A DNA stretch of 14,011 bases from a virus. Position numbers and translations under genes: made by a program. The stretch lies in the UHGV virus genome UHGV-0131161; one strand, given 5' to 3'. The notes beneath the pieces are model-generated. The model made no database searches. It saw only the letters and a list, made by a program, of their open reading frames with translations, and had not been told where the DNA came from. This document shows positions 2,115 to 12,862 of the stretch, in pieces. Position 1 is the first letter of the stretch. Each line of letters opens with the position of its first letter.

Positions 2115-2504
2115 TTAAATAACCGGACAATCATCAAACTCCCCACTTCGGGCATCATTGATGACATGAGTGATCACACCAAAAACAGCATTACTGCCCG
2201 TGCATCCATCGTCATCTACTGGTAACGCCTCTTTCTTCCCGGTGCTTAAATCCTCCAGGTGCTGGCGCGGATACTTCCTGTATCTCTTTATGCGATATTC
2301 ACCCTCCATAGCGCATATAAGCAGTGAACCATCAACCGGAGTAAGTGAGGAATCAACCACCAGCAAAGCACCTTGCAATATTCCCTCACGGTGATGGCTG
2401 TCTGCCGCCCGCATGAAGTAGGTCGCGGAAGGATGTCTGATTAGTTGCTGATCAAGAGAAATGCGGCTCTCTGCATAATCCGCCGCAGGAGAAGGGAAGC
2501 CCAT
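2115..2504 (-). CDS. humD: UmuD'-like protein (S24 LexA/UmuD family), naturally lacking the N-terminal arm upstream of the UmuD cleavage site
   Basis: Product begins [30 protein letters not shown], aligning with E. coli UmuD from Gly25 ([29 protein letters not shown]). The catalytic Ser (DSH for GDSM) and Lys (EYRIKRY for EFTVKKL) are retained. RBS AAGGT upstream of the ATG at 2504. The arrangement LexA box, humD, phd, doc matches P1. Confidence 0.9.
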   Translation of the reverse strand: [129 protein letters not shown]

Positions 2505-2522
2505 AGCGTTTTACCTTAATGA

Positions 2523-2542
2523 TACTGTTTATTCATACAGTA
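2523..2542 (-). promoter_or_regulatory. LexA box (SOS operator) in the humD promoter
   Basis: TACTGTTTATTCATACAGTA is a perfect CTGT-N8-ACAG match, 19 nt upstream of the humD start. On the minus strand it is immediately preceded by TATACT (-10-like), with TTCACA about 18 nt further upstream (-35-like). Confidence 0.85.
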
Positions 2543-2627
2543 TACATTGAAAAGGCATAGTTTGTGAAAGCGGGGTTTGTAGGCGCGCCACGCTGGGGGC
2601 TAATCACATTTCTCCCCCATCTTGCCG

Positions 2628-2879
2628 TTATTTTTTTGGTGCATCCTCGTTCTGATACACCGGATCGCTCCCTTTTGGCAACTGGAGGCTTAACTGCCGG
2701 TAGTGCCGTAGCCGTTCCATGAAATAGGCGCGCAGGTTTTCCGGTTGCTCACGGGCCACCTGCTCTGCAATCACAGGTATATTCAGCCGTTCTTTGTAAG
2801 CAACGCCGCTGGCGGCAAGGTCTACGTTCACCTTGTCTCGCTCTTCCTGGCTTTTAGCTGCTATATTTCGATCTGACAT
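2628..2879 (-). CDS. hot: Homolog of DNA polymerase III theta subunit (HolE-like)
   Basis: Core [43 protein letters not shown] aligns with E. coli HolE ([43 protein letters not shown]). GGGAGG sits 6 nt upstream of the ATG at 2879. Position just upstream of humD fits P1 hot. Confidence 0.8.
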
Positions 2880-9799: not shown

Positions 9800-10525
9800 C
9801 TACTGAATACGCTCAAACTCGATTACCCAAACCCAGGGATTAGCACTCCAGCTTTCTTCGCCGTAGATGGACTCCCACAGACGCTGGAACGCAACCTTTG
9901 CCATTGCGAAGTCCCCATTGGGAGTAAGGAATGTTCCCGGGTAATCAGGAAGCAAACTTCCAGCAGGCGGAACGCCCTCAGCCCCTGCATCGCATTCGCT
10001 GATATCGTTCAACCGCTCAACGCGCACGTTGGTAATTTCCAACAGAATGCGTGATGCCCATCGCGGCATGTGAATTGATGGACGCCACCCACCATCAAAC
10101 TTTTCATTCACAGTGTGAGGTTTCCAGTCGGCATCATCGGGTATCGACCATAAGCCGTAATCACCAGGCTTTTGCTCACAACTGGCCCGATAAATCCTTG
10201 CTGCGCTCTTCTCATCGCCACGACAAAGGTTGTCGTTCCAGTCCACACTGCAACCATCCTCATTGCCTAATATCGCCCATGTTTCACGAACCCAAATTCG
10301 ATCGCCGACGATACCAAAGGGGCAATTGAAAACACTGCTTACACCATCAGCCCCGTACCACTGAAAACCTGCACCAATTTTTCTAACCATCACTGGTGCT
10401 TCTGGACCAACTTCCGCAGGCTGATTTTTCATTATCCGCCGCGTCTGCGTTTTCCTTCCTTCGAGGATGGCCCGGACCATCTCATCGTTGAAAATCATGC
10501 CGCGCTCTTTCACTTCGCCTTTCAT
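9800..10525 (-). CDS. Putative ASCH/PUA-like domain phage protein (241 aa)
   Basis: N-terminal MIFNDEMVRAILEGRKTQTRR resembles the conserved start of phage ASCH-domain proteins as I recall it. ATG at 10525 lies 7 nt after the stop of the 28-aa peptide ORF. Confidence 0.55.
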   Translation of the reverse strand: MKGEVKERGMIFNDEMVRAILEGRKTQTRRIMKNQPAEVGPEAPVMVRKIGAGFQWYGADGVSSVFNCPFGIVGDRIWVRETWAILGNEDGCSVDWNDNLCRGDEKSAARIYRASCEQKPGDYGLWSIPDDADWKPHTVNEKFDGGWRPSIHMPRWASRILLEITNVRVERLNDISECDAGAEGVPPAGSLLPDYPGTFLTPNGDFAMAKVAFQRLWESIYGEESWSANPWVWVIEFERIQ

Positions 10526-10534
10526 GCATCCCCC

Positions 10535-10621
10535 TTACCCATGCGCGACGATGCCGCCAAAAGTGATAGAGAACAGCCAGAAATAGATCGCGGCCATAAT
10601 GATTTTGAATGCCGTGTTCAT
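10535..10621 (-). CDS. Small hydrophobic peptide (28 aa), first ORF of the long operon; not in the ORF track
   Basis: ATG at 10621 with AGGAG 8 nt upstream; product MNTAFKIIMAAIYFWLFSITFGGIVAHG; TAA at 10535-10537. Confidence 0.4.
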   Translation of the reverse strand: MNTAFKIIMAAIYFWLFSITFGGIVAHG

Positions 10622-10648
10622 ATTTTCAGCTCCTGTGATTGATTAGAT

Positions 10649-10680
10649 ACATGCCGCGCCTTGCGGCATGTTTTTATTTT
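10649..10680 (+). terminator. Rho-independent terminator-like hairpin, U-tract on the plus strand
   Basis: ACATGCCGC (10649-10657), loop GCCTT, GCGGCATGT (10663-10671), then TTTTATTTT (10672-10680). The U-tract is on the plus side even though the flanking genes are on the minus strand. Confidence 0.5.
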
Positions 10681-10703
10681 CACTTTCCCTGCTTTAAAAA
10701 TCA

Positions 10704-10720
10704 AGATTTATTAGAGCAAT
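10704..10720 (-). promoter_or_regulatory. P1 C1-repressor operator-like site (16/17 to consensus)
   Basis: Minus-strand ATTGCTCTAATAAATCT against the recalled consensus ATTGCTCTAATAAATTT. Overlaps the stop of the HAD phosphatase gene and lies about 85 nt upstream of the first ORF of the long operon. Confidence 0.5.
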
Positions 10721-11226
10721 TACTGCTGATGAAGAAGCGCATTTTCATACTCCCTGACCATTAACGTAAGCACGCCGTGTCTCCTGAAAACACGCGCCAC
10801 TTCAATCTTATCTTCCAGCGCGAACGCAATTTTACTTAGACCAATTTTCTTAAGGAGATCAATCTTTGCTGGGCCGTCATTTCTGTCATCGGTGGCAGGG
10901 CGCATAGATAGCAAAGGCTCAGCCCCGTTTGTTACGTACTTCCGCAGCCAAGCTCGTGTTTTATCCCTTGCGATCTCACAGCGCCCGGTTACAAACCAGA
11001 CCGTGTAAACGTTAAATAACTGGCGCACAATATCAATAACTGGAGTTATGGGAGTATCAGTGTCACAGGCGAGATTAAACTCGTTCCAGTCCTTTGTTAA
11101 TGCACCTTTACCTGGTGGCGGAAGCAAATGCAGTCTGTCTTCCGTTGCCTCCGATATTGTTCCATCAATATCGACTATGACGATATACGGACGTTCCTGG
11201 TGTGCGTGTTTATTGAAAATACTCAA
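10720..11226 (-). CDS. HAD-superfamily phosphatase (P1 pap-like acid phosphatase candidate)
   Basis: HAD motif I VDIDGT near the N-terminus (…PYIVIVDIDGTISE…). TTG start at 11226 with a strong RBS (GAGGAGGG); the upstream in-frame stop leaves no ATG option. Confidence 0.65.
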   Translation of the reverse strand: MSIFNKHAHQERPYIVIVDIDGTISEATEDRLHLLPPPGKGALTKDWNEFNLACDTDTPITPVIDIVRQLFNVYTVWFVTGRCEIARDKTRAWLRKYVTNGAEPLLSMRPATDDRNDGPAKIDLLKKIGLSKIAFALEDKIEVARVFRRHGVLTLMVREYENALLHQQ

Positions 11227-11243
11227 ATGCCCTCCTCATTGGA

Positions 11244-11279
11244 CGAAAAAAATGCTGGTGGGACGCACTCCACCAGCAT
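11244..11279 (-). terminator. Rho-independent terminator after the coiled-coil protein gene; stem formed by a Chi octamer and its complement
   Basis: ATGCTGGTGG (11252-11261), loop GACGCACT, CCACCAGCAT (11270-11279). On the minus strand it is followed by TTTTTTT (complement of 11244-11250). Confidence 0.6.
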
Positions 11280-11299
11280 TAAAAGTGACACTGTAACTA

Positions 11300-12562
11300 T
11301 CAGCGAACGTAAATAGTGCCGCCGTTCTCTTTTTCCCATGCGTCGCTACGTGCATAGCAAACATCGAGAAGTCTTCTTGCCGCTGTTTCCTCTAAACCCA
11401 ATTCGACAACCAACTGTTCATGACGGCGGGTAACCACATCAAACAACGTATGCAGCCCTTTAGTTGCCAGTTCATCAATGAATTCCGGTTCGAACGGTAG
11501 CTCTGCATCTGCCAACATAACCTCTTGCGCCCACTCGACACGGCGGACCAGTTCCGGGCGGCGGCTTTCCATCTCTTTACAGATCAATTCATGGAAGAAC
11601 TCTACCCAACCTTCCGGCTGGAACTCGCGGAAAATGGCCAGCGGCTGGAAGTTTGGCATCAACCATTCGTTGATTCGGATATCAATGGCATAGCCCATGT
11701 CACAGCAGAACTGATAAGCAAAGTCCAGCTTAGAAACGATATAAGGGCGCTCGTTATTGAACTCTTTAGGCGATGAGATCCCATAAGCCAGGAGGCGCGG
11801 GAAGAAGGATATTTGCCCTAACGTCGGATGGAGTTTACTTGCAGGGAAACGGCGCTCAGTAATGCCATACATTTCCTTCTTGAGTGTCGCAAATTTGGCA
11901 TTTTCATTAACCAGCTCGGTAACCTCTGCTTTTTTATTAGCAAATGCCACGCGCGCCTCACTTGCATCTTTAATGGCCTTTTTGAGCTGTTGGTTAAGGT
12001 CGGCGACCTGCTTACGCAGTTCCTGGCGCTCGCTTTTGGCTTTGTTATAGCGTTTCTCAAGGTTAAAAGGATCAAGTTTCATGATCTCTTTATATTGAGA
12101 TTTTAGCGTTGAAATCTGTGAGTTCCGCAGCTCAACCATCGCAGTCATTTCATTGAGTTTTGTTTCCAACTCAATGCTTATACGTTCGGCATTATCAGCA
12201 CGCTGGTTGGCGTCATGCGTCGCATCGTCGATGGCGTCCTGTTGCTGGCGTTTCAAATGCTCAATTTGCAGCTGAAGCTCTTCAATTTCTTTCCCCTTCA
12301 GACCGAGATCCAGCTGCATATTTTCAGCTGCATCTACCAGGTCGTTATGGCTATCAGCTTCTGCGTTATAAACATCAATAAGCTGTGCGTGAAGCATCTC
12401 AGCTGACTGAACCGCATTATCAAAAAAACGTGCTGTGAGGTCATCACAACTAACGCGGCGTTGCGCGGCTCGGATGTTCTGAATAATGGCCGGGATACCG
12501 GCATTCAGGACGTCAGGGATAGATACATTTTCGATTGATTGGTTTTGTGCTGAAGTGCTCAT
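11300..12562 (-). CDS. Coiled-coil protein (420 aa) with a C-terminal globular region (P1 pmgS-position gene)
   Basis: Residues about 70-230 are heptad-like and rich in E/K/Q/L (…EIEELQLQIEHLKRQQQDAIDDATHDANQRADNAERISIELETKLNEM…). Its start is 1 nt after the stop of the upstream small gene. Confidence 0.65.
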   Translation of the reverse strand: MSTSAQNQSIENVSIPDVLNAGIPAIIQNIRAAQRRVSCDDLTARFFDNAVQSAEMLHAQLIDVYNAEADSHNDLVDAAENMQLDLGLKGKEIEELQLQIEHLKRQQQDAIDDATHDANQRADNAERISIELETKLNEMTAMVELRNSQISTLKSQYKEIMKLDPFNLEKRYNKAKSERQELRKQVADLNQQLKKAIKDASEARVAFANKKAEVTELVNENAKFATLKKEMYGITERRFPASKLHPTLGQISFFPRLLAYGISSPKEFNNERPYIVSKLDFAYQFCCDMGYAIDIRINEWLMPNFQPLAIFREFQPEGWVEFFHELICKEMESRRPELVRRVEWAQEVMLADAELPFEPEFIDELATKGLHTLFDVVTRRHEQLVVELGLEETAARRLLDVCYARSDAWEKENGGTIYVR

Positions 12563-12796: not shown

Positions 12797-12862
12797 ATTG
12801 CTCTAATAAAAAACGTGATGAGTGTACATCACGTTTTAAAAATATGGAATTATTAGAGCAAT
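12797..12862 (-). promoter_or_regulatory. Pair of inverted P1 C1 operator-like sites flanking a 10-bp-stem terminator hairpin
   Basis: Plus-strand ATTGCTCTAATAAAAAA (12797-12813; 14/17) and minus-strand ATTGCTCTAATAATTCC (complement of 12846-12862; 14/17) flank the hairpin AAACGTGATG (12811-12820) / CATCACGTTT (12827-12836). A T-run follows the hairpin on the minus strand. Confidence 0.5.

Follow-up and report, generated by a model that had tools for sequence, protein, structure and literature searches.

The hairpin and the small hydrophobic ORF at this locus are best read, with a probability of roughly 0.55, as parts of an early or accessory operon under C1 repression, namely its control region and its first cistron; the hairpin would form the 5'-terminal stem-loop of the sense mRNA. 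The analysed DNA (the window), a stretch of 14,011 nucleotides presented as virus genome UHGV-0131161, is a P1-like (IncY) phage-plasmid, and the locus is an ordinary, previously unannotated regulatory leader with a gene for a small, predicted membrane protein in a well-known phage, not a new kind of system. The locus matters because P1 is a workhorse phage and phage-plasmids of its type spread resistance genes. The module characterized here, made up of operator, promoter, leader hairpin and short first cistron, forms the fixed 'front end' of a major cargo-swapping region of these elements. What is gained is a small membrane-protein gene that is missing from the P1 reference and can join its annotation, and an account of what appeared to be an orphan terminator. 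The features and their coordinates are collected in Table 1.

Table 1 Features of the leader, the small gene and the flanking cistrons, with positions in the window.
Feature	Position	Strand	Remarks
pmgS	11300-12562	minus	
pap	10720-11226	minus	HAD/PNKP phosphatase domain
C1 repressor operator Op88/OpmgT, ATTGCTCTAATAAATCT	10704..10720	minus	P1 annotation; sequence identical to P1
Predicted sigma-70 promoter: -35 TTGATT (10704-10699), 17-nt spacer, -10 GAAAAT (10681-10676)	10676..10704	minus	
T-run, TTTTATTTT	10672..10680	plus	Complement of part of the -10 box and of the A-rich stretch before the predicted start
GC-rich hairpin: stem 10671-10663 / 10657-10649, loop 10662-10658	10649..10671	minus	Folding, terminator scan
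Single-stranded leader from hairpin to Shine-Dalgarno, AUCUAAUCAAUCAC	10635..10648	minus	Unpaired in predicted folds
Shine-Dalgarno, AGGAG	10630..10634	minus	8 nt before ATG
28-codon gene, predicted single-pass membrane peptide, MNTAFKIIMAAIYFWLFSITFGGIVAHG	10535..10621	minus	First cistron of operon
9-nt junction TAA-GGGGGATGC-ATG and 241-aa PmgT-like cistron	9800..10534	minus	Start of variable accessory operon

The whole window matched P1-like phages as a mosaic. Phage P1 was 97% identical to it over positions 10300-11300, and the IncY E. coli plasmid pE16EC0930-2 carried a 100% identical stretch. All genes of this part (ppp, pmgQ, pmgR, pmgS, pap, the small ORF, the PmgT-like gene and the accessory run) were found on the minus strand, which agreed with the initial annotation that no plus-strand gene lies around the hairpin. 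The proposal that the small ORF opens a long minus-strand operon was likewise borne out: the next start codon followed 9 nt on and belonged to the gene for the PmgT-like protein (9800-10525, phrog_874), beyond which came closely packed minus-strand accessory genes of lambdoid type (DUF1382, Ead/Ea22, DUF7739 and DUF551) and, farther along the run, hot, humD and phd/doc. The segment from pmgT to humD has been published as one of eight hypervariable regions in P1-like phage-plasmids (variable region 8; PMC9603915), so the small ORF and the hairpin sit exactly where conserved DNA meets variable DNA. The pmgT region of P1 is the same locus, with an identical operator and the same two predicted promoters, P1pmgT and P2pmgT, as in the window; it differs in the cargo beyond the PmgT-like N-terminus because that cargo belongs to variable region 8. 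Neither the 28-codon ORF nor the hairpin is annotated in the P1 record (NC_005856.1 / AF234172). The same record notes two further occurrences of the stretch equivalent to the small ORF, one in plasmid R124/3, where it lies downstream of hsdR, and one next to the hsd locus of EcoDXXI. Literature searches on Op88/pmgT and on P1 small proteins and ribosome profiling, together with the P1vir RNA-seq papers, yielded no start-site or antisense data for the locus.

The operator is labelled 'monovalent C1-controlled operator OpmgT; former Op88' in NC_005856.1, and the binding of C1 is stated according to that record. In this asymmetric 17-bp site the first base also ends the pap stop codon, and one base is shared with the -35 box; an operator-like ATTG[CT]TCTAATAAAT[AC]T was kept in all divergent clades. 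The promoter TTGATT-17-GAAAAT was the best minus-strand match in a position-weight scan, with a score of 9.1 that placed it among the top 11 of 28,022 positions. It equals P1pmgT of the P1 record, where this promoter, like P2pmgT, is a prediction only, and the same geometry was present in the divergent relatives L124, L125 and L136. Transcription is predicted to start at about 10669-10671, at the very beginning of the stem's 5' arm, so that the mRNA would begin with the stem-loop. The alternative predicted promoter, P2pmgT, would put about 13-15 unpaired nt before the hairpin and would thus weaken the protection of the 5' end. On the plus strand, a promoter scan of the window found no promoter. 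The best position-weight score on that strand, 5.8, was at chance level, being reached about once per 118 nt in the window, and the remark of the initial annotation that no convincing plus-strand promoter could be found therefore stands. A candidate plus-strand -10 box, CATAAT (10595-10600), had no usable -35 and was lost in L136.

Folding analysis confirmed a strong hairpin with a plus-strand U-tract in the 5' leader of the ORF, as had been noticed from the sequence at the outset. The element reads ACATGCCGC/GCCTT/GCGGCATGT, followed on the plus strand by TTTTATTTTC, and was detected by the terminator scan; its stem comprises 9-10 bp with 6 GC pairs. The plus-strand fold had an energy of -18.3 kcal/mol (z = -6.0, with 0 of 200 shuffles as good) and the minus-strand fold one of -16.3 kcal/mol (z = -3.9). 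Viewed from the plus-strand side, a GC-rich stem-loop directly followed by a U-run has the form of a canonical intrinsic terminator. This 'terminator' arises because the A-rich -10/start region (GAAAAT plus AAAAA) abuts the hairpin. In both the minimum-energy and the centroid folds the Shine-Dalgarno sequence and the ATG were unpaired or weakly paired, and the leader core AAUCA(AUCA)C between hairpin and Shine-Dalgarno was conserved across clades as invariant alignment columns. Within the P1 clade, the hairpin stem was nearly invariant in about 100 loci, in which the non-coding flanks varied. A similar hairpin also follows the -10 box of PpmgR, a neighbouring C1-controlled promoter.

Comparison with the sister clades separated what is conserved in this leader from what is peculiar to P1. 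L124/127-129, L130, L131-133, L125 and L136 all shared the order of operator, TTGATT-like -35, -10, hairpin, 12-23 nt, GGAG and a small ORF with a transmembrane segment. The stems of the clades were all different in sequence (ACAUGCCGC, UGGCGGUCGC, UGGCAGUCAC, GGGCAC, GGCCGC and AAGGCCAC). In the L124 group, RNAalifold recovered nine base pairs, four of which had changed on both sides, one of the pairs being GC in four sequences and AU in four. Substitutions compatible with G.U pairing left the sense hairpin the more stable one in six variants and the antisense hairpin in three. The opposite-strand T-run was restricted to the P1 clade, with 7/8 T there versus 1-4/8 in the other clades. An exception to the shared arrangement was L126, whose hairpin encloses the -10 box and has a sense-strand T-run, and which has no small ORF. 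The module was retained where pap is absent (L131-133 and L136), and thus belongs to the downstream operon and not to pap. As judged from these alignments and predicted folds, what the clades conserve is a stable stem-loop with which the leader opens.

The alternative that survives best makes the hairpin and T-run mainly a plus-strand intrinsic terminator, which would shield pmgR-pmgS-pap from the hypervariable cargo and serve as the hsdR terminator in relatives that carry hsd genes. The element has the textbook form on the plus strand and borders the published variable region 8 (PMC9603915), and its T-run shows good conservation within the P1 clade. Furthermore, in 21 of 98 relatives the type I restriction genes hsdS-hsdR occupy the plus strand and converge on the small ORF, the cargo breakpoint lying 4 nt past its stop codon, and in phi456 the hairpin is the sole canonical terminator after the hsdR stop. 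The window, however, contains no plus-strand gene or promoter whose transcript could be terminated, and the sister clades have the hairpin without the T-run. The T-run overlaps the -10 box, which explains its conservation without a terminator role, and it is equally conserved in pmgT-type and hsd-type relatives; given this equality and the overlap, selection for a terminator role cannot be shown. We therefore consider termination as the main function a tentative possibility. Where convergent transcription exists, the hairpin very plausibly terminates it. Such termination would put the hairpin to a second use and is compatible with its proposed place at the 5' end of the sense mRNA.

The small hydrophobic-peptide ORF pointed out in the initial annotation was upheld by its exact translation, its AGGAG, a coding signature and 97 intact copies. 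Its frame ends with the TAA at 10537-10535 and translates exactly to the peptide given in Table 1. A set of 97 P1-clade loci was gathered by using pap as the anchor, a procedure that introduces no bias from the small ORF itself. No locus of the set departed from the ATG, the GGAG or the frame, and there were zero indels and zero stop codons; the GGAG was also invariant in all divergent clades. Two additional loci had a recombinant C-terminus, giving an intact total of 97/99. In these two relatives the part after codon 19 has been swapped out, once by an intimin-like cargo gene, so the peptide is dispensable. Polymorphism among the 97 loci amounted to 7 synonymous versus 11 non-synonymous events (event-based dN/dS 0.44, one-sided p = 0.077); synonymous variants reached up to 45/97 and 8/97 loci, each non-synonymous variant at most 6/97, and codons 1-11 showed no synonymous polymorphism across the clade. 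Taken alone, the polymorphism within the P1 clade was only suggestive of coding.

The 28-residue peptide had a best 19-residue Kyte-Doolittle mean of 2.1. A 44-codon version that begins at an ATG inside the hairpin (10669) is annotated in SJ46 and phi456. This extended ORF was rejected, since a TAA at 10645-10643 closes its frame in the window and the 28-codon frame and its Shine-Dalgarno sequence are untouched, which identifies the 28-codon form as the gene. A protein homology search with the 44-aa extended form from P1 returned only relatives at 93% identity or more. The small peptide had no match in Pfam, NCBIfam or PADLOC (E <= 1-10), and among PHROGs it hit phrog_27041 alone (E = 0.16), with no fitting family.

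The decisive evidence came from divergent homologues of the peptide. Divergent P1-like contigs were reached via Pap homologues and an exhaustive profile search; a Pap scan of genome contigs gave two near-identical loci only. At the same position as the small ORF, the divergent contigs encode a 53-residue family (MQVLIKLAVTAFFVWLF...) and a 48-residue protein (MNTAFKLAMAAFYFWIFCIAFNGLVK...), the N-terminal helix of which is in register with the 28-mer, with M1, K6, A11 and W15 invariant. The similarity of the 28-mer to these homologues was significant in a fixed-register shuffle (p = 1e-5). Between the window and L136 (25 codons), pS was 0.80 and pN 0.19 (Fisher p ~2e-5), so that the transmembrane segment is strongly conserved although synonymous sites are saturated, and L124 versus L125 (53 codons) gave a dN/dS of 0.31. 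An AlphaFold model of the 53-mer predicted residues 2-23 to be a confident helix (pLDDT about 90). The homologues bear hydrophilic tails of 20-25 residues, which the P1-clade form does not have. In the P1-like elements examined, the peptide gene was always the first ORF past the operator and hairpin, and a search of 1.84 billion representative proteins found no relatives of the peptide beyond P1-like elements. On this comparative evidence, the 28-codon ORF is a genuine gene, predicted to encode a small membrane protein, that is absent from the P1 reference annotation.

The gene might nevertheless be the decayed remnant of a 48-53-residue gene, its product being a functionless peptide that is translated only to feed ribosomes to the next gene, or one that is not under selection at all. 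This would fit the missing tail of the P1-clade form, a dN/dS that is not significantly below 1 inside the P1 clade, the breaking of the ORF after codon 19 in two relatives, and recombination breakpoints 4 nt past the ORF stop. About 280 further plasmid records gave a partial match only, and all 19 of those sampled, most of them IncF-type and the rest similar, keep no more of the ORF than an 84-bp remnant; in one such record that was opened, the remnant lies between hsdR and an IS1. Against decay, the start codon, GGAG and reading frame are intact in 97/99 loci, non-synonymous variants are as rare as described above in comparison with synonymous ones, and the transmembrane segment is strongly conserved relative to L136 even though synonymous sites are saturated. 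Decay of the gene is thus unlikely.

The favoured reading, in which a C1-repressed promoter feeds a leader that opens with a stem-loop, can be laid out as a sequence of steps. In the lysogen, C1 on Op88 would block TTGATT-17-GAAAAT. Upon derepression, transcription from the predicted start would yield an mRNA that opens with a GC-rich stem-loop of 7-9 bp, which should slow RppH- and RNase E-dependent decay from the 5' end and so stabilise the long operon mRNA, as in ompA and papA. The unpaired AGGAG 15 nt downstream would take up ribosomes, which would produce the 28-residue peptide, probably inserted as a single-pass protein in the inner membrane. Translation would then stop 9 nt before the next ATG and adjoining the next Shine-Dalgarno sequence, GGGGGA, a position that makes translational coupling to the PmgT-like gene, and to the variable cargo behind it, probable. 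In relatives, the stop codon of the small ORF overlaps the next start, as ATGA or TGATG. It is established that E. coli mRNAs with a 5'-terminal stem-loop are shielded from 5'-end-dependent decay. The effect is reported to have been described by Emory in 1992, by Bouvet and Belasco in 1992, by Arnold in 1998, and by Bricker and Belasco in 1999, and PMC3997798 lists all four papers among its references.

A more elaborate proposal concerns the roughly one fifth of P1-like phage-plasmids with a convergent type I restriction operon, in which a bidirectional hairpin might tie restriction activity to the lysis-lysogeny switch. There, the transcription units of hsdR and of the C1-repressed Op88 promoter would meet tail to tail, overlapping in the peptide gene. 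In the lysogen, transcripts that run past the end of hsdR would keep the peptide gene silent; once induction lifts the repression, antisense transcription would enter hsdR. In a second form of the proposal, the peptide would be a membrane-active toxin that is held in check by C1 and not by an RNA. We regard the proposal, in either form, as improbable.

The initial annotation had suggested a type I toxin-antitoxin-like arrangement, in which the peptide would be a membrane toxin and a short plus-strand RNA, ending at the hairpin and complementary to the ribosome-binding site and start codon, the antitoxin. Its description of the peptide as Hok/Ldr/TisB-type in character was correct as to size (28 aa) and hydropathy, which resemble those of TisB, Ibs and Ldr-type toxins; no toxin family in Pfam, NCBIfam or PADLOC matched. 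Any plus-strand RNA ending at 10680 would indeed span the Shine-Dalgarno sequence and ATG, and the first 11 codons are free of synonymous polymorphism in the P1 clade. A GcvB-like Rfam match on the plus strand (10594-10677) scored 20.7 bits against a gathering score of 42, no family reaching threshold in the Rfam scan; it consists of the complement of the Shine-Dalgarno region plus the terminator and was treated as chance. The arrangement is nevertheless highly improbable. The plus strand offers no above-chance promoter, its candidate -10 box is lost in L136, and sister clades with both hairpin and peptide gene lack the T-run. Moreover, the Shine-Dalgarno sequence is free and not sequestered in the predicted folds, the ORF opens a longer operon that is repressed by a protein, C1, and its homologues carry hydrophilic tails.

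Finally, the hairpin might be the terminator or 3'-end stabiliser of the pap transcript, the upstream phosphatase gene, or form a leader-peptide attenuator together with the small ORF; it does lie 49 nt past the pap stop, and comparable hairpins with a sense-strand T-run occur at the pmgQ/pmgR junction and in L126, yet both roles are very unlikely, because the hairpin stands downstream of the operator and promoter, has no sense-strand U-run after it in any clade with the module (2-3/8 U; window 3/8) and is retained where pap is missing, and because an attenuator hairpin should lie between the ORF and the next gene, where the 9 nt available fit none, and not upstream of the ORF as here, which leaves the attenuator suggested initially unsupported.

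Among known systems, the peptide resembles the type I toxins TisB, Ldr, Ibs, ShoB and Hok in having fewer than 60 residues, one hydrophobic helix and few charges. It is unlike them in that no antisense RNA gene was found, its ribosome-binding site is unsequestered, it is a member of an operon repressed by a protein, and it matches no toxin family. The non-toxic small membrane proteins MgtS, AcrZ, KdpF and MgtR of enterobacteria and those of temperate phages likewise consist of one transmembrane helix of about 20 residues encoded by a short operon cistron. The peptide has no sequence relationship to them, and its family is limited to P1-like elements. With short coupling cistrons, both natural ones and those of the synthetic 'bicistronic design', the small ORF shares a stop codon 9 nt before or overlapping the next start and a next Shine-Dalgarno sequence at the end of the ORF. 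Like such cistrons, the module precedes interchangeable cargo, to which it would be coupled; it differs from them in hsd-type relatives, where no gene on the same strand follows the small ORF. A close parallel for the leader is provided by those of ompA and papA, with which it would have in common a stable hairpin at or within a few nucleotides of the 5' end (a predicted end here), a single-stranded segment and a strong ribosome-binding site. This likeness is one of mechanism and not of sequence family. As in ompA and papA, the structure of the leader is kept while its sequence changes.

The leader of the small ORF, a 28-codon membrane-peptide gene on the minus strand, contains a single-stranded AAUCA(AUCA)C motif (window 10635-10648) directly upstream of the GGAG of the Shine-Dalgarno sequence. 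Comparison of the leaders of the window and of four divergent P1-like contigs (L124, L125, L126 and L136) showed that this motif was better conserved across clades than the peptide coding sequence, and it could serve either to enhance translation or as a site for binding. On the plus strand, window 10594-10677 matched the Rfam GcvB family at 20.7 bits, below the gathering score of 42. The alignment placed UAUUUUCAGCUCCUGU against the conserved UAUUUUCACUUCCUGU of GcvB and included the terminator, a likeness that arises because the complement of the Shine-Dalgarno region adjoins the leader hairpin. A C-to-T change at window 10643-10645 (CTAATC versus CCAATC), also present in three of the other loci compared, generates a TAA that closes a 44-codon extended ORF; this ORF is an annotated gene in SJ46 and phi456 ('membrane protein' / Orf75).

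Some divergent P1-like elements (L131-L133 and L136) lacked pap entirely, with pmgS followed directly by the operator-hairpin-small ORF module. The most divergent Pap-bearing clade (L126, 59% identity) had no small ORF at L126 2990-3095; its hairpin there encloses a -10-like motif, GTGAAAAT, and has a T-run on the sense strand, and the first gene downstream encodes a 156-aa protein with faint HTH/MarR-like matches. The P1-like contig L116 carried as cargo a gene for a 1211-aa intimin/invasin-like adhesin, whose insertion broke the small ORF behind codon 19 and so produced a 98-codon fused frame.

Coordinates of the genes, hairpins and small-ORF derivatives
Feature	Location	Strand	Position or context
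humD	window 2115-2504		
hot	window 2628-2879		
Terminator-like hairpin, 11 pairs then TTTTTCGTCC	window 11251-11280	minus (sense)	between pmgS and pap
11-bp hairpin, AAAACGUGAUG/CAUCACGUUUU	window 12800-12850	minus	at neighbouring C1-controlled promoter PpmgR
Small-ORF remnant	L002 4001-4084		plasmid pU14A_A
Second hairpin, 10-bp, CTTGCGGGTT/AACCCGCAAG	L004 4942-4969		phi456, immediately after hsdR stop
Adhesin cargo	L116 1359-4994		
98-codon fused frame	L116 5330-5626		

The PpmgR hairpin begins near the -10 box and start site, as the leader hairpin does at OpmgT. It is flanked on either side by the inverted operators Op86a/b, has T-runs on both strands and gave a z of -6.8. P1 may use hairpins set within its C1-controlled promoters as a general design. 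The terminator-like hairpin between pmgS and pap may shield pap in part from transcription coming from pmgR-pmgS.

Partial matches to the small ORF were found in approximately 280 plasmid records. All 19 records sampled, mostly of IncF type, contained only an 84-bp remnant, made up of codons 3-28 and a further 4 nt. In pU14A_A, the one record of these examined in detail, the remnant lay directly downstream of a type I hsdR and was cut by an IS1 end, which suggests that the hsd module moved out of P1-like surroundings, bringing the remnant with it. The second hairpin of the hsd-carrying relative phi456 was identical in sequence in pU14A_A. In phi456 a T-run precedes this hairpin and none follows; the hairpin therefore has the form of a canonical terminator on neither strand.

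The window genes, as far as examined, lay on the minus strand throughout. P1 carries the plus-strand gene lxr between humD and hot, whereas in the window (2115-2879) these two genes are adjacent and lxr is absent.
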